A stretch of 49,436 nt of DNA. Source: an uncultured archaeon. Lineage in GTDB: Archaea; Aenigmatarchaeota; Aenigmatarchaeia; PWEA01; JAGHBM01. The position numbers and the translations under genes were made by a program. Shown in pieces: positions 9,190 through 18,658 of this stretch (positions are counted from its first letter, which is position 1; each line of letters starts with the position of its first letter). The stretch covers positions 14,749 to 64,184 of the forward strand of contig CAZXFI010000005.1 in the NCBI GenBank assembly GCA_964640225.1, given 5' to 3'. Under the pieces are notes generated by a model. That model searched no databases and was not told the DNA's origin. It saw only the letters and a program-made list of their open reading frames with translations.

Positions 9190-9894
9190 CTATCCCAGAA
9201 CCAGATTTCTCTGTTTTTTGTCCAGCTTCTCCGAGGCGTACCTGAGAACAAGGCGCGAAGTTTTGCCCTTCCACCTAAGAAGGAACTCAGTCACTTCATT
9301 TGGCCAGGACTTTGACGCCTCCTTCAGGAGCCATCCCACGCCCTTCCTAACCATGTCATCCCTGTCCTCCATGAGCTTGTCCGCTGTCCTGAATATGTCC
9401 TTCCTGAACTCCCCCCTTCTTCCGGCTATCACCAGGGAGACTGCGCTGCTCCTCCTGACCCACCTGTTCGGGGAGTAAGTCATTGCGTACAATTCCTCCA
9501 GCAGTTTCGGATCCTTTTTCACGCACTCGTAAATGTGGTGGCTTGAAAGCTCGTCGCAGTGAGCCCAGTTTCCTATGTATTTTTCAAGCCATTCCCTGAA
9601 AACGAAAAAGGTTTTCCTGCCGAACTGGCCTTTGAATTTGCCCAGGAGCTCAAAGCCTACCACTCCCTCCTCAAAGTACCCGGTTTTTAGCAGGCGCCCC
9701 GCCATGTTGAGCGTTTTCTTCATGTCCAGCTCTTCATTGTGCTTCTTGAATATGTCGCGGGCCACCTTCCTTGCATCGTAAAGTCTTACCCCGCGGGTCT
9801 TTACGGACTCCCTGAAGTACCTTTTCTCCTGCTCGGCACGCTCGGGGTTTGCGTGCCTTTTTAACTCTTCTCTTATGCCTGAAAAAATGCTCAT
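9190..9894 (-). CDS. DNA alkylation repair protein (AlkD-like HEAT-repeat)
   Basis: IGNWAHCD, SPNRWVRRSS, DDMVRKGVGWLLKE, LRYASEK. Confidence 0.9.
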   Translation of the reverse strand: MSIFSGIREELKRHANPERAEQEKRYFRESVKTRGVRLYDARKVARDIFKKHNEELDMKKTLNMAGRLLKTGYFEEGVVGFELLGKFKGQFGRKTFFVFREWLEKYIGNWAHCDELSSHHIYECVKKDPKLLEELYAMTYSPNRWVRRSSAVSLVIAGRRGEFRKDIFRTADKLMEDRDDMVRKGVGWLLKEASKSWPNEVTEFLLRWKGKTSRLVLRYASEKLDKKQRNLVLG

Positions 9895-10697
9895 CCGTAA
9901 GCCTCCCTCAACACAAGCTTTCCCTCCCCGTCCCTCAGGTAAAGCGTGTCCCCGTCGTTGTTCCAGACTGCCGGGCAGGAGCCTCCCTTGTCCCAGAAAA
10001 TCTCGCAGGAATTATCTTTTCCGGAGCCAGAAAAAAGCGTGACGGATTTTTTCGTCTTTAGCACAAAATCATGGAATGTGTAAACTGATGTTCCCGCGTC
10101 CTTGACAGACCACCCCGTAATCTCGCAGTCAAAGTGGCAGGTGTTGCTGAAAGCAACCCACTCCCCGTTAGGGTTGATGCAGTCGTTTCCCTCCGCGTCC
10201 CAGTTGAACCGGTCCACACGGATGCACTCGGAACACCTGTCCTCCGAGACCAGGGACCACACGCCTTTCCTGGTGCTTCTTGCCGCGCTTTCCGCATCCC
10301 TGAAAAGCCTTTCGTGCCTGTTGTTCGGCTGAAGCACGTAAACGGTGGCGTAGCCTTCCTCTATCATAAGCAGGTTCACCATCTCGTCACCGATATAGAC
10401 ATATCTAAGCAGGCGCCCGTACTTGTCCGTCCCCTCTTTATCCTTTTCCATTGAAACTTCCTTGTTTAGTACGAGCCTTTCCATTTTCTTCCTTGCTTCA
10501 TCATAATAGGATTCCCCTTTCTCCGGAGCGTTTATGCCCGTGAGCCTTACCTTTTCCGAGGTGTTCAGCTCCAGTGTGTCCCCGTCTATCACCCTTTCCA
10601 CGAAGCCAATTTCCCTTTCTTCCAGGCTTGCGAAATACAGGGCAGAGAAAAAAACAAGCCCCACGGCCAGAACCAGAAGAAAAATCACTGATTTCAT
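9891..10697 (-). CDS. Membrane-anchored thermonuclease (SNase) fused to a lamin-tail domain
   Basis: VIDGDT, VRLTGINAPE, DKYGRLLRYVY; C-terminal EWV..N...ITGWSVKD...VWNNDGDTLYLRD. Confidence 0.92.
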   Translation of the reverse strand: MKSVIFLLVLAVGLVFFSALYFASLEEREIGFVERVIDGDTLELNTSEKVRLTGINAPEKGESYYDEARKKMERLVLNKEVSMEKDKEGTDKYGRLLRYVYIGDEMVNLLMIEEGYATVYVLQPNNRHERLFRDAESAARSTRKGVWSLVSEDRCSECIRVDRFNWDAEGNDCINPNGEWVAFSNTCHFDCEITGWSVKDAGTSVYTFHDFVLKTKKSVTLFSGSGKDNSCEIFWDKGGSCPAVWNNDGDTLYLRDGEGKLVLREAYG

Positions 10698-11554
10698 GCT
10701 ATCATCAAAACCCTTACCAAATCTATGAGGGCCAGGGGGGTCGCGGCGAGCCAGAAAAACTTGAGCCCCTGGTCAACTGTCATCCTTGCAAAGAGAACCC
10801 TCACAAAGGTTAGCAGGAAAACCACGGAGAAGCACTTGAGAAGGAAAATCCAGAAAGTCCCCGCCCCGAGGAAGAGAACGGTTACCAGAGAGGAGAGCGC
10901 AAAAAGCTTGAACGCGTAGGCCAGCTCAAACATTCCCAGCCTGTAGCCGGAAAGCTCCGTGAAAACCCCCGCCACCAGCTCCTGTTCCGCGTGGGGTATG
11001 TGAAACGGCGGCAGCTCAAGCTCTCCCTGCACCGCCACCAGGAATGCGAGGAATGCGAGAGGGTAGTAAACGAAAAGGCCCGGTGTTATCTCCAGGCTCC
11101 CCAAGGCCGGCACGAGTATGGCCACTATGAACGGTAGCTCAAAACCGAAAGCCTGGACCAGCTCCCTGCCACCCCCCAGACCGCCGTAGGGATTTCCCGA
11201 GGCGAACCCTGCCACGATATAGCCCGCCACGCCCATCAGGAAAAGGTAAATCACGTATATTATGGAGCCGGAAAAGCCGAAACTGAAGAAACCGCTGACA
11301 GGGACAATCAGAATTATTGAGATGTATGCGGCCAGGGAGATTATGGGCCCCCAGAGGATGTAGGGGCTCTCCCTTCTTGACTTGATTCTCTCCTTTGAGA
11401 AAAGCTTTGCCACGTCAAGAAAGGGCTGCCACACCGGAGGGCCTATCCTTTGCTGAAACCTTGCCGCGGTTTTCCTCATGAAACCCATGAAAAGCAGGCC
11501 GAAAAATCCCGCGAACAAGACTTTTGACGCTAAAAGCGTTATCTCAATCAGCAT
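10694..11554 (-). CDS. mbhM: Membrane-bound hydrogenase subunit M (NuoH/complex I subunit 1 family)
   Basis: RKTAARFQQRIGPPVWQPFLDVAKL, PFHIPHAEQELVAG. Confidence 0.92.
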   Translation of the reverse strand: MLIEITLLASKVLFAGFFGLLFMGFMRKTAARFQQRIGPPVWQPFLDVAKLFSKERIKSRRESPYILWGPIISLAAYISIILIVPVSGFFSFGFSGSIIYVIYLFLMGVAGYIVAGFASGNPYGGLGGGRELVQAFGFELPFIVAILVPALGSLEITPGLFVYYPLAFLAFLVAVQGELELPPFHIPHAEQELVAGVFTELSGYRLGMFELAYAFKLFALSSLVTVLFLGAGTFWIFLLKCFSVVFLLTFVRVLFARMTVDQGLKFFWLAATPLALIDLVRVLMIA

Positions 11555-12695
11555 TTCTAAGCTCCTCCCCTGTGACGATTTTGCTTTTTCCGGTGTCCAA
11601 GTCCAGAAGCGTCATCCTGTCGGTGCAGGACATACACGGGTCTATTGACATGATTGCTATGGGCACGTCAGCCAGCCTTAGCCCCTTAAGCAGGGTAGGC
11701 AGGGCGTTTAGGGTGGCGTAAGTCGGGGTTCTTATCTTGACCCTGTCCGGAGACTGCCTTCCCCTGGAAGTCCTTATGTAGTAAGCAAGCTCCCCCCTCG
11801 GCGCCTCAACCCGGCTGAAAATCTCCGCTTTGGGTATTTTGGCGAAGCTCACCGGAATTTTTGTCCTGCCCTTCGGTATCTTTTCAATCAGCTGGTCCAG
11901 AATTTTAAGGCTTTCCTCAATCTCGCGGAGCCTCATGTTTATCCTAGTGAGGATGTCCCCGGAGTTTCCCGTAATGGTTCTGAATTTAACGTCCCCGTAG
12001 GCGAAAAAGGGGTCGTCCTTTCTTATGTCCATGGGAATCCCCGAAGCCCTGGCGTTGGGCCCGACCACTCCCAGCTCCACCGCGTCCCCGTGGGAAAGCT
12101 TTCCCCTTCCTCTGGTTCTCTTGACTATGGACTTCTCCCCGTTGAAGTACTTCAGGTTCTGCCTTGTTTTTTTTCCCAGGAAGTCCAGCTTCTCCCTCAT
12201 GCCTCCTCCGAACTTAAAATCTCTTCTTACCCCGCCGAAGCTGTTTATCACGTAGTGAATACGGTTGCCTGTTATATCCTCCAGCATCTCCAGACATCTT
12301 TCCCTTTCCCTGAACATCAGATGGAAAAGCGTGTCATAACCCATCTCATAGGCGCACATGGCGGCGTAGAGGTAATGGGAGTGGATACGCGAGAGCTCAA
12401 AGACTATGGTCCTTATATACTGGGCCCTTTCCGGCACCTCCGTGCCCATTATTTTTTCCATCCCGTTGACGAAGCACGAGCTGTGCGAGTGCCCGCAGAG
12501 GCCGCACACGCGCTCCGCGAGGTAAATGTCCTTCAGAAAGTCGCGGGACTCAAATCCCTTCTCAATGCCCCTGTGGTTGTAGCCGAGGAACAAGTCCACG
12601 CCCCTAACCGTTTCACCCTCCAGCTTTATGGTGAAGTGCACCGGCTCAGGCAATGCAGGGTGCTGCGGGCCGAATGGTATTTTCATTTCTTTCAT
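11544..12695 (-). CDS. mbhL: Group 4 [NiFe]-hydrogenase large catalytic subunit
   Basis: GPQHP, ERVCGLC (L1) and DPCMSCTDR (L2) with all four Ni-ligating Cys, and a cleavable C-terminal extension. Confidence 0.95.
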   Translation of the reverse strand: MKEMKIPFGPQHPALPEPVHFTIKLEGETVRGVDLFLGYNHRGIEKGFESRDFLKDIYLAERVCGLCGHSHSSCFVNGMEKIMGTEVPERAQYIRTIVFELSRIHSHYLYAAMCAYEMGYDTLFHLMFRERERCLEMLEDITGNRIHYVINSFGGVRRDFKFGGGMREKLDFLGKKTRQNLKYFNGEKSIVKRTRGRGKLSHGDAVELGVVGPNARASGIPMDIRKDDPFFAYGDVKFRTITGNSGDILTRINMRLREIEESLKILDQLIEKIPKGRTKIPVSFAKIPKAEIFSRVEAPRGELAYYIRTSRGRQSPDRVKIRTPTYATLNALPTLLKGLRLADVPIAIMSIDPCMSCTDRMTLLDLDTGKSKIVTGEELRNAD

Positions 12696-12699
12696 TTTA

Positions 12700-13110
12700 T
12701 CACTTCTTCCTCAGCGGATGGTCTATATCCTCCGGCAGGAACAATTTCTTGAGGTTTGGGTGGCCTTTTACTTGAAGCCCGAGCATTTCGGCCAGTTCCC
12801 TTTCAAACAGGTTGGCCGATTTGAAGACAGGGGTTGTTGAAGGCACGGCGTTTGACTTCTTTGAGACATCTGTCTTAACGCTAAGCACACCGTGGCCCAG
12901 CTCCAGATGGTAGATAACCTCTATAACCTTTCCGGTGTCGTTGCCCGTCACGGAAATGACCCTCTTTATACCGTAGTCGTGCCTCAGCCTCTCGCACACC
13001 TTGAGCAAATCCTTCCTGGGCACGCTCATCCAAATCCTTTCCTTATCTTTTCTGTAAACCTTTCCCAGCTTCTTCAAGTCTTTCATTGTTTTTTCACCCT
13101 TTTTTGTCAC
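12700..13110 (-). CDS. mbhK: Membrane-bound hydrogenase subunit K (NuoC family)
   Basis: SVTGND, ANLFERELAEMLGL...GHPN...HPLRK. Confidence 0.92.
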   Translation of the reverse strand: MTKKGEKTMKDLKKLGKVYRKDKERIWMSVPRKDLLKVCERLRHDYGIKRVISVTGNDTGKVIEVIYHLELGHGVLSVKTDVSKKSNAVPSTTPVFKSANLFERELAEMLGLQVKGHPNLKKLFLPEDIDHPLRKK

Positions 13111-13522
13111 CCAGAATTTTCACCGCCTTGAGCAGGCCGTCTATTATTGACTCAGGCCTCGGCGGGCAGCCCGCCACCCAGACGTCCACGGGAATTACCT
13201 TTTCCAGGGGGCCATCCAGCCCGTAGTTCCCCCTGAAGACGCCCAGGCCCGTGGCGCACGCGCCCACTGCCACCACAACCTTGGGGTTTGGCATCTGGTC
13301 GTATATCCTCTTCAGCCGCGGGGCCACTTTCCTGTTTACCAGGCCGTCCACCAAGAGAATGTCAGCGTGCCTCGGGGAGCCCCGGAACTGGGCTCCGAAC
13401 CTCTCCACGTCAAACCTGGGAGTCAGAGAGGCCAACTCCTCAATCGTGCAGCCGTTGCACCCCGAACACGAAAAGTGCAGTATCCAGGGACTTTTCTTCC
13501 TTGAATAGTTTTTCAGGCCCAT
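13094..13522 (-). CDS. mbhJ: Hydrogenase small Fe-S subunit (NuoB family)
   Basis: SGCNGCTIE, SPRHADILLV, AVGACA, VAGCPPRPE. Confidence 0.95.
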   Translation of the reverse strand: MGLKNYSRKKSPWILHFSCSGCNGCTIEELASLTPRFDVERFGAQFRGSPRHADILLVDGLVNRKVAPRLKRIYDQMPNPKVVVAVGACATGLGVFRGNYGLDGPLEKVIPVDVWVAGCPPRPESIIDGLLKAVKILGDKKG

Positions 13523-13734
13523 AAAACCACAAACATTACCATGACGAATACGGTTCCAAGAAGCAGCCAGTAAAGGTACTGGCTCACGTCCCCGGAGTGG
13601 GCTTCTCTGAGCTTCCTGATTCCCAGGAATTTCAGGACCGTGTCAAAAAAGTAATCCGGGCTTGCAACGTATTCCTTCTCGTATTCCTCCCCGCAGAGGT
13701 ACATTTCCGTTTCCCTGTCCTTTTTTTTCTTCAT
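13513..13734 (-). CDS. mbhI: MbhI-like subunit (short)
   Basis: YLCGEE motif, amphipathic helix, HSGDVSQYLYW then TM; position before mbhJ. Confidence 0.7.
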   Translation of the reverse strand: MKKKKDRETEMYLCGEEYEKEYVASPDYFFDTVLKFLGIRKLREAHSGDVSQYLYWLLLGTVFVMVMFVVLWA

Positions 13735-13740
13735 AAAAAA

Positions 13741-14118
13741 TCACTTGTTGTGCACCAGGATTCCCCCGGCAAAATAATTATGGTTCTTATCCACTTCTAA
13801 ATTATATGTTTCCGCTTTATCATATATTTTCCTTACGCTCTCCACATGACCCGGGAAGAGCATGTCACCCTCCTTTAGGAAACGAGCCCGCTTCCATTCC
13901 CCTCCCGAGTAAACGGGGTGGCTCGGGGTGACGCGCAGGGCGTTGTTTATTAAAATAAAGTAGGGGCTATCCCGCGAATGCCTGAAGGTCCTGGTCACTC
14001 TGGCCGGCTCGTACCTTCCCTCTTCCGGGTTGTAAGAAAGAACCAGCTCGCCTGGCTCCACGTCCTCTATATTTTTGAATCCATCGGCCATTGCTATCTT
14101 CGTGCCGGCAGGGAAGCA
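13741..14118 (-). other. Mini Hint/BIL domain (125 aa, no homing endonuclease)
   Basis: Block A CFPAGT, block B TPSHP, block F YNLEV, block G VHN followed by a single Lys and stop. Confidence 0.9.
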
Positions 14119-15654
14119 GGCGAACTCCTCAACTCTCAGTTCAAACTCCCCGTCCAGGTCCATTGAAAATTCCAGTTTTCCTCCGGAGGCGTATATCGTG
14201 TTCAAGTAGTTTCCGTTGTAGTATATGTCATAATCGGACTCGTAAAGCCCGGACAGGTTGTAGTACGCTGTGGTGCTGGAGGCTGTATCGTTCCACTGCA
14301 CCAGGCCCTGAGTCCATGAGGTAAGCTCCCTGGTCAGGGTCAGCGTGTCGCTCACCGAAGTGTTGAGCCATATTCCCCCGCTGGTTTCATTGTTGTAGTT
14401 GAACCAAGTGGAAGTGTCGGAAAGGTATATCTCCCTGGGCTCGGTGAAATTGGTGTTCCTGAAAGAGTTCGTGGCTCCTATATCCCCGTTGGTGTAATAC
14501 TCCAAAGAACTGCTTGCCACGGAGCCCCCGATGAATTTTGTGCCAGTGATTGGTCCGCTGGATCCGTAAAAATACACCGCGCGGTTGTTGGCCGTGATAA
14601 CGTTGTCGTAAAAGCTGTTGTTGGCCGTGTTGGCCGCCATGTAAACCGCCCTGCTTGAGTCCGCATTGAAATTGTTTTCCGAAAACACGTTGTGGTCCGA
14701 TAATGGATTCAGATTCACGGTGTACATGTCCGAAGTGGCGTTGTTCTGCTCCACGATGTTGTAATCGCTTGAGGCAAGATGTATCGCATAGCCCGTGACG
14801 CTGCCCAGAATGTTTATGTTGTTGTTGTAAAGGGTGTTCCTGAAGGAGGAAGATATGGCAATGCCGTAGGCGTAGTCCGAGGTCAAAGTGTTGCCGCTCA
14901 CGTTGTTGTAAGAGCTTGAGGAGAGCCTGATGCCGTAGTTGTAATCGCTCACCGTGTTGTTTTCTATGGTTCCGTTGTCCGCGCCGCTGCAGTAAATCCC
15001 GTAATTGCTTCCCGCGCCCCCGTTCATGTCAACCACGCAGTTCTTCACGGTGACGTTGTCAAAACCCGTGTTGTTTATCCCGTAGGAGCCTGTGCTCTGC
15101 AAGTAATGGCCCCGGCAGTCCAGCGTGACGTCGGACGAGTTTATGTAGAGTATTGTGCCGGAGCAGCCGGTTATGTTTTCCGTCAGGGTCGTGTCCTCGT
15201 TCACATAGTCACCGCAGGAGAACGTAAACGCAGTGGTCGTGGTGTAGCCTGTTTCATATTCGTCGTAAACGTGCGGACAGCTTGTGACAACCCTAACCCT
15301 GGTTATAAGCCCTTCCGGTGTTTCAGATGACAACGTGACCTTGGAGCCCACCCCGACCGAGCCCGGCGTGGCATCGTAGGAGTAGGAGCCGCTCCCGTTG
15401 TAAACGACTATCTTCAGGCCTGAAAGGTCGGTATAACCCAGGTTTTCCACGGTCACCTTGAGGTTCCCGTTCGTTTCAACGCCGTCTATGTGTATCACCC
15501 CGGTCCCGCATTCCACCGCGGTCTCACCGCTCTCCTCCACTCCGGCCCTGCTTTTTTTGGTAAGCTCCACGGCAAACATGTTCGTAAGGGCCGCGGCCAT
15601 TATTACGAAGGCTATCATTATTATTGCAGCCACCAGCACAGATATTCCTTTCAT
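13741..15654 (-). CDS. Pilin/archaellin-like N-terminus + NosD/CASH beta-helix + C-terminal Hint (BIL/intein-like) domain
   Basis: Class III signal MKG|ISVLVAAIIMIAF; GI.L.SS..N.I..N repeats; A|CFPAGTKI.MADG...VTPSHP...YNLEV..NHNYFAGGILVHNK-stop. Confidence 0.88.
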   Translation of the reverse strand: MKGISVLVAAIIMIAFVIMAAALTNMFAVELTKKSRAGVEESGETAVECGTGVIHIDGVETNGNLKVTVENLGYTDLSGLKIVVYNGSGSYSYDATPGSVGVGSKVTLSSETPEGLITRVRVVTSCPHVYDEYETGYTTTTAFTFSCGDYVNEDTTLTENITGCSGTILYINSSDVTLDCRGHYLQSTGSYGINNTGFDNVTVKNCVVDMNGGAGSNYGIYCSGADNGTIENNTVSDYNYGIRLSSSSYNNVSGNTLTSDYAYGIAISSSFRNTLYNNNINILGSVTGYAIHLASSDYNIVEQNNATSDMYTVNLNPLSDHNVFSENNFNADSSRAVYMAANTANNSFYDNVITANNRAVYFYGSSGPITGTKFIGGSVASSSLEYYTNGDIGATNSFRNTNFTEPREIYLSDTSTWFNYNNETSGGIWLNTSVSDTLTLTRELTSWTQGLVQWNDTASSTTAYYNLSGLYESDYDIYYNGNYLNTIYASGGKLEFSMDLDGEFELRVEEFACFPAGTKIAMADGFKNIEDVEPGELVLSYNPEEGRYEPARVTRTFRHSRDSPYFILINNALRVTPSHPVYSGGEWKRARFLKEGDMLFPGHVESVRKIYDKAETYNLEVDKNHNYFAGGILVHNK

Positions 15655-15655
15655 T

Positions 15656-17071
15656 TCAGCACCCGAAAACCGAACAGTAATAGCCCGCGCTTCCCAGGAG
15701 AGATTCCGCTACGGGCTGGAGCGTCCGGATTACGACCCAGGGGAGCAGGCCCATGATTACGCAGAAGGCGGTAAGCACCAGAATCGGCACCAGGAAGTTC
15801 ATGTCCTCCTTTATTTTTTTCTCCGACCCGGAAAAAAGCTTTCCGAAAGCCTTCAGGTAGTAGGCCAGCGTCACGACTGACACGAGTATCGCCACAAGTG
15901 TGGGGAGAACTAAACCCGCCTGGAAGCCGGCCTCGTATATAAGCAGCTTGCTTGCAAAGCCGTTCAGGGGAGGTATCCCGGCTATCCCCAGGGAAGCCGT
16001 GAGAAAGCAGGCGCCTGTCACGGGCATGTTGACAGGCTTTATGCCACCGCACCTTGATATCACCGAGCCCAAAATAAGGAAAAGAACCATCTTGAGCAGG
16101 GCGTTGTTTATCAAATGGAAAAGCCCCCCGGTGAAGCCCGGGAAGCCAAGGCCGAAAGCGAAAAGTACGTATCCCATCTGCGAGACCGAGGAGTAGGCCA
16201 GCATTCTTCTCAGGTCCTCCTGGGACAGCGCCATGAAGGCCCCCACTACCATGGAGAGCAGGCCGAGAACCAAGAGGAGCTGGTTGACTCCCATTAAACC
16301 GAAAAGGAAAAGCATCCTTACCAGGACGTAAACTCCGGTGAGCGTGGAGACGGAAACAATCATGGCGGCAACCGGCAGGGGGGCTCCTTCCGTGACGTCT
16401 GGTTTCCAGAAATGAAAAGGAACGGAGCCTACCTTTACCAGGTAGCTCGTGAGTATGAGGCCCAGGGGTATCATGGATTCCCTGAAAGGCGTTTTCATCA
16501 CAAGGTCTGCCATGTTAAGGGTTCCTGTCATACCGTAAAGAAGCGCTATCCCCAGGAGCAGAATTAAGCCGGCGAAGGTTCCCACAAGCACGTACTTTAT
16601 TCCCGCCTCCACGCCCTTTCCGTCCCTATGGAAAACGCTCAGGGCGTAGGATGCTATCATCATCAGCTCCGTGAACACGAAAAGGTTAAAAAGGTCCCCT
16701 GTAATGAGAATGCCTGTCATGCCCACCGTGAACAGAAGAAACAGTGAATAAAACTCCGACCTCCTTTCGGTAACAAACTTCTCTACCAGCAGGCTGATTA
16801 TGAGGCTCAGGCCCGAAACAATCACCAGAAGCGCTATGGAAAGGGAATCCACGGAAAGTGTTATCCCAAAGGGAGGGGGCCACCCGTTCATGTTGTAGGT
16901 GATTGTCTCCCCGGAAAGAACCGTGGGCATAAGGGAAATCCAGAAGAAAAACGAGAACAGAAGCGCGGTCGTGACCAGGACTCTCCTGAACAGCTTTAGC
17001 TTTATCCCTATGAAGGGCGTCAGGAACCCTGCCACAAGAAGCACTGCAACCGGTATGTATATCGGCGTCAT
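15656..17071 (-). CDS. mbhH: Proton-conducting antiporter-like subunit (MrpD/NuoN family)
   Basis: TGDLFNLFVFTELM, KVGSVPFHFWKPD, RMLAYSSVSQMGY, GIPPLNGFASK. Confidence 0.93.
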   Translation of the reverse strand: MTPIYIPVAVLLVAGFLTPFIGIKLKLFRRVLVTTALLFSFFFWISLMPTVLSGETITYNMNGWPPPFGITLSVDSLSIALLVIVSGLSLIISLLVEKFVTERRSEFYSLFLLFTVGMTGILITGDLFNLFVFTELMMIASYALSVFHRDGKGVEAGIKYVLVGTFAGLILLLGIALLYGMTGTLNMADLVMKTPFRESMIPLGLILTSYLVKVGSVPFHFWKPDVTEGAPLPVAAMIVSVSTLTGVYVLVRMLFLFGLMGVNQLLLVLGLLSMVVGAFMALSQEDLRRMLAYSSVSQMGYVLFAFGLGFPGFTGGLFHLINNALLKMVLFLILGSVISRCGGIKPVNMPVTGACFLTASLGIAGIPPLNGFASKLLIYEAGFQAGLVLPTLVAILVSVVTLAYYLKAFGKLFSGSEKKIKEDMNFLVPILVLTAFCVIMGLLPWVVIRTLQPVAESLLGSAGYYCSVFGC

Positions 17072-17415
17072 CCAAACAGCTCCCTCATTTTTTTCGTGTC
17101 AAGCGTTTTTTTCTTCTCGTAAAGCAGGATTGCCATGGAGAGGGCAAGTGCCGTTACCGAGAGGTCTATGACTATTGATGTAAGGACCAGGGCCTGGGGC
17201 AGGGGGTCCACGGAGTATTGGGAAAAGGTTAGCAGGTTTTCCGGTGTTATTATGGGGTTTATGCCTCCTTCCCTGTAGCCGCTGGTTATAAGCACGAGAT
17301 TCACTCCCATTGTGATTATACCCATTCCCATTATCTTCTTTATCAGGTTCCTTTTCAGAACCAGGCAGTAGATCCCTATGAGCACGAAGACCGTTCCGAA
17401 CACGTATTCAATCAT
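17068..17415 (-). CDS. mbhG: MrpC/MnhC-like subunit
   Basis: NLIKKIMG, VDPLPQALVLTSIVI. Confidence 0.93.
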   Translation of the reverse strand: MIEYVFGTVFVLIGIYCLVLKRNLIKKIMGMGIITMGVNLVLITSGYREGGINPIITPENLLTFSQYSVDPLPQALVLTSIVIDLSVTALALSMAILLYEKKKTLDTKKMRELFG

Positions 17416-17422
17416 TTTTCTC

Positions 17423-17821
17423 TCACTCCTCTTTCACCATTGAGTAGAATATTATAAGGAAGGATGTCATCACCATCGTCCCGGCTGTTATGTTCAGCAG
17501 CATTATCTCTCCCCCGCTCCACAGGTTGAAAAGTGACTCGGTTGTGAAAAGCAAGTCCCTCAGGAACAGTTCAAAAACCACCAGAAAAGCGAGTATTATG
17601 CCGGCCGCGGCTTCCAGGCGGTGGGAGGTCTCCTTTTTTATTATGTGCTCCGCTTTCTGGAGGCCGAAAACAACGCAAACGAGTACCACGGCGGAGGCAA
17701 GCAGAACGCCTCCCTGGAAGCCTCCCCCCGGCGTCAGGTGACCGTGCGTTATTACATACATGCTGTAAAGCAGCAAAAACGGGAGAAGCACCCTTGAAAC
17801 TGTCTCCTTTATTACGGTCAT
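17423..17821 (-). CDS. mbhF: MrpB/MnhB-like subunit
   Basis: HGHLTPGGGFQGG; start reassigned to MTVIKET. Confidence 0.92.
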   Translation of the reverse strand: MTVIKETVSRVLLPFLLLYSMYVITHGHLTPGGGFQGGVLLASAVVLVCVVFGLQKAEHIIKKETSHRLEAAAGIILAFLVVFELFLRDLLFTTESLFNLWSGGEIMLLNITAGTMVMTSFLIIFYSMVKEE

Positions 17822-17826
17822 AATTA

Positions 17827-18132
17827 TCACTTTGAAACCTGAAATATTTTCGGCATCTTTTTCCTCCTGATTATTTTTCTGTACTTCCTGAAAATCGCGT
17901 ATATGCCCATGGTGGCCGTGAAAAGTATTATCTCCTCCCCCAGGGTATCGTAAGCCCTGTAATCCCACATTATGGTTGACACCACGTTCGGAGCTTCCGC
18001 ATCCGTCAGCGCGTTTTCTATATGGTAGTTTGAAATCTTCCTGTCAAAGTCCGCAAAACCCGGGGCAAAAAGCACGGAAAGCGTTAGCACGGCAAGGAGG
18101 GTGAGCGCTATAAGAAACAGGGGCCTGTTCAT
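17827..18132 (-). CDS. mbhE: MbhE-like subunit (MrpA C-terminal/MrpB N-terminal part)
   Basis: PNVVSTIMWDYRAYDTLGE. Confidence 0.9.
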   Translation of the reverse strand: MNRPLFLIALTLLAVLTLSVLFAPGFADFDRKISNYHIENALTDAEAPNVVSTIMWDYRAYDTLGEEIILFTATMGIYAIFRKYRKIIRRKKMPKIFQVSK

Positions 18133-18362
18133 TCCTCAAACCTCCCTGTTTTTTCTATTGTTATGACAAAGATAACCGTCACCATTATAACCCCCACCGC
18201 CGCCTGGGCTATCGCTATGTCCGGGGCTCTCAGAAGAAGGAATATTGAGGTGAGGCAGAAGCCGGCCCCGGCCATGAAAACAACCGCCCTGAGCAGGTCC
18301 TTCTCCCTTATGACCAGCAGGAAAAGCGCGGTCATGAGCACGAGCAGGACAAAGCCAATCAT
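18129..18362 (-). CDS. mbhD: MbhD (DUF4040) subunit
   Basis: DLLRAV...LRAPDIAIAQAAVG. Confidence 0.9.
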   Translation of the reverse strand: MIGFVLLVLMTALFLLVIREKDLLRAVVFMAGAGFCLTSIFLLLRAPDIAIAQAAVGVIMVTVIFVITIEKTGRFEE

Positions 18363-18658
18363 TTTTTTTTCGCCTCCTTCTTTTCAAGTTTCACCCCGTT
18401 CCTGTAAGCTGCGTTTGCTATCGCATGGGAAGCCGTGGGCGACGTGAGAGACAGGAGAAGCATCAGGAGCAGGTATTTCATGGAAAGCACTGAGTAGAAG
18501 TTTTTGATGAAAAGCATGAAAAGCAGCAGGCAGGTGCAGCCCACCGCGCACATGGTGGAGGCAAAAATCCTGGTGTAAACGCTTTTCATTCTCAAAAGCC
18601 CCACAGCTCCTACAAGCCCCGAAATCACGGGAATCCATAGAAGGATTTCTAGGACCAA
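18359..18658 (-). CDS. mbhC: MrpG/MnhG-like subunit
   Basis: GAVGLLRM..VYTRI, LTSPTASHAIANAAY. Confidence 0.9.
   Translation of the reverse strand: MVLEILLWIPVISGLVGAVGLLRMKSVYTRIFASTMCAVGCTCLLLFMLFIKNFYSVLSMKYLLLMLLLSLTSPTASHAIANAAYRNGVKLEKKEAKKK

Follow-up and report, generated by a model that had tools for sequence, protein, structure and literature searches.

A pilin-like beta-helix protein of an Aenigmatarchaeota archaeon that ends in a conserved Hint domain

Introduction

What is a Hint domain for when it is the last module of a protein and only one residue follows it? The question is raised by P0001, an open reading frame (ORF) in a window of 49,436 nucleotides (the whole stretch of DNA that was analysed), which comes from an uncultured archaeon of the GTDB lineage Archaea; Aenigmatarchaeota; Aenigmatarchaeia; PWEA01; JAGHBM01 (assembly GCA_964640225.1, contig CAZXFI010000005.1, positions 14,749 to 64,184 of the forward strand; genome G000 in what follows). 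Known forms of the Hint domain are inteins, Hedgehog processing domains, bacterial intein-like domains (BILs) and pre-toxin peptidases. In P0001 such a domain closes a protein that begins with a pilin-like head and continues as a beta-helix. The initial annotation of this DNA had seen in it a candidate system for self-processing or covalent attachment in a DPANN-type organism, and the latter assignment agrees with the genome size (1.17 Mb) and with the NCBI label of the closest orthologue (Candidatus Aenigmarchaeota). The explanation that we consider best, with a probability of roughly 60%, is that P0001 is an exported, pilin-anchored adhesin whose Hint domain mainly cleaves itself off between A512 and C513.

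A pilin-like protein with a Hint domain as its end

The ORF is present as first described, and the architecture claimed for it (class III leader, pilin-like head, beta-helix, terminal Hint, non-nucleophilic +1 residue and no C-extein) is borne out by the sequence and by domain matches. Its modules are the following:

13741..15654, minus strand: whole ORF P0001, 637 aa, consisting of a pilin-like head, a beta-helix, a beta-sandwich, a terminal Hint, Lys and the stop
15646..15654, minus strand: predicted class III (prepilin-type) leader MKG, read from the sequence and expected to be cut at G3/I4, with a hydrophobic helix (residues 4-25) behind it
15238..15654, minus strand: archaeal type IV pilin / archaellin-like module, residues 1-139 (8-sequence profile match)
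14455..15222, minus strand: right-handed parallel beta-helix of the NosD/CASH type, about residues 145-400 (Pfam, model)
14119..14454, minus strand: beta-sandwich, about residues 401-512, ending ...VEEFA; its last residue, A512, is at -1 to the Hint junction (model strands 407-510)
13747..14118, minus strand: Hint domain C513-N636 (PT-HINT / type-A BIL-like), with C513, T576, H579, H635 and N636
13744..13746, minus strand: Lys637, the +1 position and sole residue past His-Asn
13741..13743, minus strand: TGA stop; the next ORF, in the same frame, begins 6 nt on

The 3' end of the ORF reads CAC AAC AAG TGA and the protein terminates in ...ILVHNK. The Hint length of 125 aa given initially holds (C513-K637), the residue numbering being off by one, since the nucleophile is C513 and the -1 residue A512; the 'Thr linker' described between head and cargo comes down, in P0001, to four Thr. 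The parts are all of known kinds. What sets P0001 apart is how they are put together, with an archaeal pilin head in front, an adhesin cargo and, as the last module, a PT-HINT/BIL domain that is conserved and under constraint. In the papers searched no description of such a combination was found, and the NCBI annotation of the orthologue in genome G004 says beta-helix repeat protein and nothing more.

Family, catalytic residues and fold of the Hint domain

Residues 520-636 match the Pfam model PT-HINT (PF07591) over positions 2-136 of its 137 (E 2.8e-12, 47.5 bits vs a cut-off of 27.7). Two further models are matched above their cut-offs, namely Intein_splicing of Pfam (E 4.5e-10, 40 bits vs 35.8) and intein_Cterm of NCBIfam, the intein C-terminal splicing region (E 5.4e-7, 29.6 bits vs 15.6). 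The Hedgehog-type Hint PF01079 (16.6 vs 29.7 bits), Hint_2 (16.1 vs 28.4) and Vint (24.7 vs 27) all stay under the Pfam cut-offs. The named relatives of the domain in a large protein collection are bacterial proteins labelled 'polymorphic toxin-type HINT domain-containing'; they come from a region-restricted search that scored 158 candidates and did not recover the three known orthologues.

The Cys1, the TxxH and the terminal His-Asn followed by Lys and stop that the initial annotation had pointed out are all there: block B reads T576-P-S-H579 and the end H635-N636-K637 (alignment numbering), and C513, T576, H579, H635, N636 and K637 are invariant in an alignment of the four proteins that share the whole architecture (see below). 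Across 28 class-level Hint domains H635 and N636 are likewise invariant, and T576 and H579 are conserved in at least 90%. The residues preceding the junction are unconserved in the four orthologues, except for a small -1 residue (A or G).

The domain was refolded on its own with AlphaFold2 (AF2), using 28 sequences from a class-level scan (29 tblastn hits in 25 loci, of which 27 were aligned together with the query and a partial hit, L044, was excluded). The result has a mean predicted local distance difference test score (pLDDT) of 93.6 and a predicted template modelling score (pTM) of 0.87. The best Foldseek matches in the PDB are the BIL2 of the Tetrahymena BUBL1 locus (6y75/6tmm, TM 0.84-0.87, 26-27% identity), followed by the Clostridium thermocellum BIL 2lwy (TM 0.85, 27% identity), by mini-inteins (1mi8, TM 0.84) and, lower, by the Hedgehog HhC 1at0 (TM 0.79, 17% identity). 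By sequence, the best solved match is 8w20_A, a 1368-aa 'Intein C-terminal splicing domain-containing protein' (E 6.3e-10), and further ones are 2lwy_A (E 7.5e-8, phmmer) and 6y75/6tmm (E 2.6-2.8e-7). The comparison with Hedgehog made at the outset is thus the more distant one, both in the profile score (PF01079, 16.6 vs 29.7 bits) and in the fold (1at0, TM 0.79 vs 0.85-0.87 for BIL structures).

Conservation of the end and selection on the domain

Does the protein really stop after HNK? An orthologue search through about 5.8 billion protein clusters, with 8000 scored candidates of 350-1115 aa, returned 16 proteins at E<=1e-5, and beta-helix and PT-HINT are combined in four of these, the query included: P0001, P0151, P0045 and P0047. 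P0151 is the 730-aa orthologue encoded by G004, a metagenome-assembled genome (MAG) of the same genus with the NCBI label Candidatus Aenigmarchaeota; its C-terminus is ...GVLVHNK-stop, and the genes downstream of it are those found in G000. All four proteins start with MKG(I/A)S and a hydrophobic helix and end in LVHNK, with a mean column identity of 53-54% and an overall identity of about 45%. Furthermore, Logan contigs from four runs of one microbial-mat study cover 13500-14400 with zero differences; two of these runs are possibly the source sample, and the stop is spanned by two short contigs from the other two runs. It had been foreseen that homologues running past His-Asn with Cys, Ser or Thr would betray an error at this position. 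The three same-architecture relatives stop at LVHNK and the stop is therefore real, a sequencing error being ruled out by the ends of the G004 protein, P0045 and P0047 together with the agreeing contigs.

The orthologues of G000 and G004 were also used to estimate nonsynonymous divergence (Nei-Gojobori dN; synonymous divergence, dS, is saturated). The Hint and the pilin head have the same dN, 0.27, whereas the sandwich reaches 0.36 and the beta-helix 0.62. Since the dN of the Hint equals that of the pilin head and lies far under that of the beta-helix, the domain is under selection, which speaks against a remnant in decay.

The pilin-like head and the machinery of the genome

P0001 begins with MKG/ISVLVAAIIMIAFVIMAAAL, which conforms to the archaeal class III leader ([KR]G, a small residue, a hydrophobic helix), and the helix of residues 4-25 is present in the predicted model. 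A pattern search found the same KGIS(P) plus hydrophobic N-terminus in 15 ORFs of the genome, mostly of 126-255 aa, with four of 500-891 aa that include P0001. Related genomes contain many stand-alone ORFs, 140-190 aa long, with homology to residues 2-135, and a profile was built from the P0001 head and seven full-length stand-alone homologues, leaving out a fusion (L014), a sequence with masked letters (L016) and two partial ones (L051, L054). Pilin_N and Arch_flagellin are each matched at E<=1 by five of the eight profile members (best 7.2e-5 and 2.4e-4). Against solved archaeal filament subunits the profile matches 8fk7_A best (E 2.3e-8, positions 1-127 of 148), and then 8rey_M (2.5e-5), 9myg_A (1.4e-3) and the Natrinema pilin 8gi2_A (1.6e-3). 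The genome encodes a clear A24 peptidase on contig C10 (45.3 bits), together with T2SSE ATPases (six matches) and T2SSF platform proteins (seven matches, six of them over the cut-off) in at least three loci.

The beta-helix and sandwich cargo

The cargo is recognised as Beta_helix (E 2.1e-22, 79.9 bits vs a cut-off of 25.9) and NosD (E 5.1e-12) by Pfam and as parallel beta-helix repeats by NCBIfam. In the model the sandwich strands (407-510) have a pLDDT of about 65-85 and the beta-helix mostly one of 85-97. In its fold it is matched best by phage tailspikes/depolymerases and by the alginate epimerase AlgG, and on the basis of this modelled fold the beta-helix is taken to be of a carbohydrate-binding or carbohydrate-active type.

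The helix and sandwich module is not confined to P0001. It is repeated in giant open frames of the genome, of 4210, 3765, 2957, 2537 and 2122 aa (44-64% identity; 52 matches), which lie on contigs C18, C7, C21, C22 and C16 (L002-L010) and take up a large share of the 1.17 Mb. On contig C1, a 1254-aa beta-helix frame (132642-137317) stands beside a type IV pilus-like locus (T2SSF at 134014-135169, ATPase at 136580-137317), and this adjacency hints at a link between beta-helix proteins and pilus machinery in this genome.

The Hint subfamily and its +1 lysine

A phmmer search with the 132-aa Hint part against 1.84 billion representatives yielded 16,260 proteins at E<=1e-3, of which 2,925 reach E<=1e-10 and 92 reach E<=1e-30; the statistics that follow concern the best 150 of the 16,260 representatives. 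Position 1 is Cys in 328 of 332 domain starts. Among the 253 complete ends with His-Asn (15 more, in which no HN could be recognised, were not counted), Lys takes the +1 position in 180 and Ser, Thr or Cys in 17; behind them come another Hint within 15 aa (115 ends), other sequence (116) or at most 12 residues (22). Seen by protein, the sequence continues past the last Hint in 105/150, and the last complete Hint lies at most 12 aa from the protein end in 27/150 by a looser criterion and in 22/150 by the stricter HN-based count, an exact HNK terminus being found in eight (P0001, P0045, P0047, P0051, P0099, P0104, P0144 and P0146). The class-level genome scan gave a match at E<=1e-3 in 82 of 301 genomes, true inteins counted in. 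The 28 complete hits that were read from it have Lys at +1 in 12 cases, Ser in two that look like ordinary inteins and another non-nucleophile in 14, and in seven of the 28 the protein ends within 9 residues past the Hint. By these residue and end counts, HNK is the normal C-terminal motif of the subfamily, and a protein that ends there is a recurrent minority arrangement.

Some of the relatives are informative on their own account. P0098 joins an archaellin/pilin-like head (archaellin-like, 25.1 bits) to DUF285 repeats and a terminal Hint ending HNVK, and is thus a second architecture with the same logic as P0001; P0051 has DUF285 repeats and a terminal Hint 60% identical to that of P0001. 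Tandem arrays of Hints joined by K-GG or K-GGGGG linkers are common in the subfamily, with up to 12 matched stretches in one protein (P0007, phmmer) and four in a row in L035 (G127:C2). In genome G002 (L025:1219-1905), a 228-aa protein begins with about 95-105 His-rich residues, directly followed by a Hint ending HNK-stop; this protein could be a precursor of a self-releasing small protein or peptide; P0041 and P0086 have the same N-terminus. That gene is flanked by one for a 346-aa polytopic membrane protein and by a radical SAM gene. The membrane protein gave no Pfam match at E<=10, so the guess that it is A24-like is unsupported. Three other proteins with a terminal Hint (P0084, P0099 and P0146) have a common N-terminus, MKGTLFSADF...LLE(L/V)NTDT, with no obvious signal peptide, and Hint-terminated proteins may therefore not all be extracellular.

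A genome scan of G000 found no Hint of the family other than that of P0001. A weak intein-like block F/G on contig C3 (1643-1744; ...HNF...CHN; tblastn E 0.15 in a search at E<=10) may belong to an ordinary intein.

The operon slot and its content in related genomes

The gene is nested in an operon of the Mrp/Mbh type (antiporter-like and NiFe-hydrogenase-like), at 9891-19352 on the minus strand, which also encodes MnhE, NuoK-like, NuoD/NiFe-like and NuoH-like subunits. Its neighbours, and an ORF of the window that had been connected with it, are these:

15656..17071, minus strand: MnhD/NuoN-type antiporter-like subunit, upstream and 1 nt from the ORF start (Proton_antipo_M 3.5e-57)
13513-13734, minus strand: 73-aa single-TM ORF, downstream
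13094-13522, minus strand: NuoB-type subunit, downstream (Oxidored_q6 2.1e-30)
20656..21165, plus strand: 169-aa polytopic membrane ORF, proposed A24 peptidase (weak sub-threshold PF01478)

The last of these had been taken for the peptidase that would mature P0001. PF01478 scores 11.5 (E 0.42) to 15.6 bits there vs a cut-off of 26.5, and the clear A24 of the genome is the one on contig C10. Kinship of this ORF with the G002 membrane protein beside the Hint-only gene was considered and rejected (BLASTP E 14). A tRNA scan of the window found none.

The downstream gene order recurs in G004, G002, G001 and G003, and a NuoB-type gene was found in 11 of 41 related genomes. What varies is the content of the slot that P0001 occupies:

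G000 and G004: pilin, beta-helix and Hint
G002: plain 136-aa pilin, 59% identical to the P0001 head
G001: pilin with an internal DUF2341 and Laminin_G_3 insert
G003: no gene
G017 and G019 (order level): no gene

Comparison with known systems

Which of the known Hint systems does P0001 resemble most? Type-A BILs keep the C-terminal His-Asn, are devoid of a +1 nucleophile and form an N-terminal thioester, as described in PMC4031507 (which cites Amitai 2003, Dassa 2004 and Aranko 2013); the same text reports their C-terminal cleavage by Asn cyclisation, the ligation of their flanks through the freed amino group and a dominance of cleavage products. P0001 is like a type-A BIL (2LWY) in its mini-Hint fold of 124 aa with no endonuclease insert, in Cys1, TxxH and His-Asn, in its non-nucleophilic +1 residue and in its carrier, since it sits in a variable secreted or surface protein (a pilin-like one, in an operon slot whose content varies within the genus) and not in a conserved site of an essential protein. 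It differs in that the host is a DPANN archaeon and the carrier a type IV pilin-like protein, and in that the Hint is at the extreme C-terminus with a single Lys as 'C-extein'. Every sequence feature of a type-A BIL is present, and with its PT-HINT match and its BIL-like fold the domain belongs to the PT-HINT / type-A BIL group. It does not look like a canonical intein: the +1 residue is Lys637 followed by the stop, there is no C-extein, and the Hint-less relatives of the carrier differ in their C-terminal parts, so that we share the earlier view that canonical splicing is not to be expected.

The PT-HINT domains of polymorphic toxins, as Zhang et al. 2012 (PMC3482391) describe them, share with P0001 the nearly full-length model match and an extracellular carrier of the repeat or stalk type. 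Unlike them, P0001 has neither a toxin domain behind the Hint nor a linked immunity gene, and because no toxin domain follows, the toxin-releasing role has nothing to act on. The BIL2 of Tetrahymena thermophila BUBL1 (6Y75/6TMM) is the best structural match. It is flanked by ubiquitin-like domains, with an acceptor lysine in the C-terminal one or in substrates, and its thioester is passed to a lysine amine (PMC8616854), which shows that a BIL can ligate its N-extein to other proteins; the N-extein of P0001 is instead a beta-sandwich/beta-helix adhesin with no C-terminal domain after the Hint, and the identity is 26-27%.

Hedgehog/Hog proteins are alike in having the C-terminal Hint of a secreted protein, with N-terminal thioester chemistry that releases the N-terminal domain. 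They are much more distant, and P0001 lacks a sterol- or adduct-recognition region behind the Hint and keeps the His-Asn, for which it is not counted among them. As for the other end of the protein, P0001 has in common with archaeal type IV pilins and archaellins a class III leader of the KG/IS type, a hydrophobic helix at the N-terminus and a beta-sandwich, and the genome encodes the assembly proteins and an A24 peptidase. It differs in its cargo of about 500 aa plus the Hint, and in that its gene is in an Mrp/Mbh-type operon and not in a pilus locus. Pilins with a large C-terminal cargo are known in bacteria, as the tip minor pilins.

Proposed function and alternatives

With all the catalytic residues conserved and BIL domains as the nearest solved relatives, self-processing, the first half of what the initial annotation proposed, is the natural expectation from the sequence. 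In the scenario that we favour, the protein would be exported and its MKG leader removed by the A24 prepilin peptidase of the genome, after which the head would serve as its anchor, either to the membrane or within a filament resembling a type IV pilus, and the beta-helix would be displayed as a glycan adhesin, directed at a host or at the matrix of the mat. The Hint would carry out an N-S acyl shift at the A512/C513 junction, and the thioester would be resolved mainly by hydrolysis, so that the 125-aa piece of Hint plus Lys is shed and the mature adhesin ends ...EEFA. If N636 cyclises, Lys637 alone would be set free or, in the way suggested for type-A BILs, would be joined to A512; given that a single Lys is the whole 'C-extein', splicing could append one residue at most.

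Several observations weigh against this scenario or parts of it. The head of P0001 alone scores under the Pfam cut-offs (Pilin_N 12.4 vs 25.2 bits; Arch_flagellin 17.3 vs 29.5) and class III leaders also occur on non-pilus surface proteins, such as the sugar-binding proteins of Sulfolobus, for which a location in a filament is not certain. A prepilin-like N-terminus is present in only six of the 150 closest Hint representatives (four archaeal-type, two bacterial-type). Furthermore, the Hint is not needed for proteins of pilin plus cargo in general, since fusions with no Hint exist in G001 and in G007; the latter is a pilin and beta-helix protein of 516 aa that aligns over residues 2-236 only and hence gives no view of the predicted cut site. 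In the full-length AF2 model, made with four sequences, the Hint part is poor (pLDDT 25-65), and its packing against the cargo therefore cannot be inferred. Finally, the conservation of the +1 Lys (180/253) is not explained by simple cleavage and may point to an amine-based reaction, and it is hard to see what the protein gains from a domain that does nothing but remove itself, for which there is room for a function in transfer.

Such a transfer is the second half of the initial proposal: the thioester at A512 would be attacked by an external nucleophile (lysine or another amine, a thiol, a hydroxyl), carried by a surface molecule of a host cell, by a lipid, by the envelope of the archaeon itself or by another pilin, and the C-terminus of the adhesin would become covalently attached as a 'grappling hook'. 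We regard this as unlikely, and as a minor possibility too the specific version of it in which the Hint is a single-use ligase whose A512 thioester is caught by an amine or hydroxyl on the host, on the cell's own envelope or on a pilus subunit, with the +1 Lys taking part. The closest solved fold, the Tetrahymena BUBL BIL2, is reported in section 2.4 of PMC8616854 to conjugate its N-extein to the lysine epsilon-amines of several substrates with no need of ATP. The Hint of P0001 is under purifying selection with no C-extein, the terminal arrangement recurs with different adhesin cargoes, and conservation of this kind would be poorly accounted for by a tail that only removes itself, which favours a transfer; the Hedgehog Hint, moreover, passes its N-terminal part to cholesterol. 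To this it is opposed that an acceptor-recognition region is absent, the protein ending one residue past the Asn, that the gene has Mrp/Mbh subunits for neighbours and no linked candidate for an acceptor or an accessory function, that the residues before the junction, save the small -1 residue, are unconserved among the four orthologues, and that cleavage products predominate in the type-A BILs of PMC4031507.

Could the domain be what is left of a polymorphic toxin, or an acceptor of cassettes, in which a C-terminal toxin module was lost or is recombined in and the Hint is now functionless? The PT-HINT match over the cut-off, the bacterial polymorphic toxin-type HINT proteins among its named relatives and the 105 of 150 representatives with sequence past the last Hint would suit this idea, as does the position of the PT-HINT peptidase just ahead of the toxin domain that it is thought to release (PMC3482391). 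We hold it to be quite improbable, because LVHNK is the end of all four proteins, which are about 45% identical overall and keep their catalytic residues, the dN of the Hint equals that of the pilin head and is below half that of the beta-helix, the next genes downstream are conserved operon members with no orphan toxin- or immunity-like gene among them, and the genome has only one Hint of the family.

Processing-inactive domains of the Hint fold exist, and the Hint is the best-conserved part of the cargo, so a non-catalytic domain that stays attached and serves, for instance, in docking or adhesion may also be thought of. All the residues for the N-S acyl shift and for Asn cyclisation are invariant in the orthologues, and Cys1 is found in 328/332 domains of the wider family; as this pattern is the one expected for catalysis rather than for binding alone, we give the structural role an equally small chance as the toxin remnant.

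Last, an error of sequencing or assembly at the stop, or read-through of it into the ORF 6 nt downstream, can be dismissed for all practical purposes: the TGA is indeed followed by TTT TTT and by the in-frame ATG of that ORF (13735-13743), but the contigs of the four runs, albeit all from one study, show no differences, P0045, P0047 and the G004 orthologue end alike, and read-through is ruled out by the downstream ORF being a conserved separate gene in G001, G002 and G003 and lying in another frame in G004, for which the frame shared here is coincidental.

Significance

Where a pilin-borne adhesin ends in a Hint that lacks a C-extein and is kept by purifying selection, Hint chemistry is put to a distinct use. 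If the domain only cleaves itself off, as we favour, it would constitute a maturation step for surface adhesins of DPANN archaea. If a transfer were true, it would be a new mode of covalent attachment between symbiont and host, as well as a naturally minimal, C-extein-free ligation module; and were the Hint a single-use ligase, it would give an ultra-small episymbiont an ATP-independent covalent attachment, comparable in archaea to the conjugation by BUBL-type BILs or to pili built by sortases.

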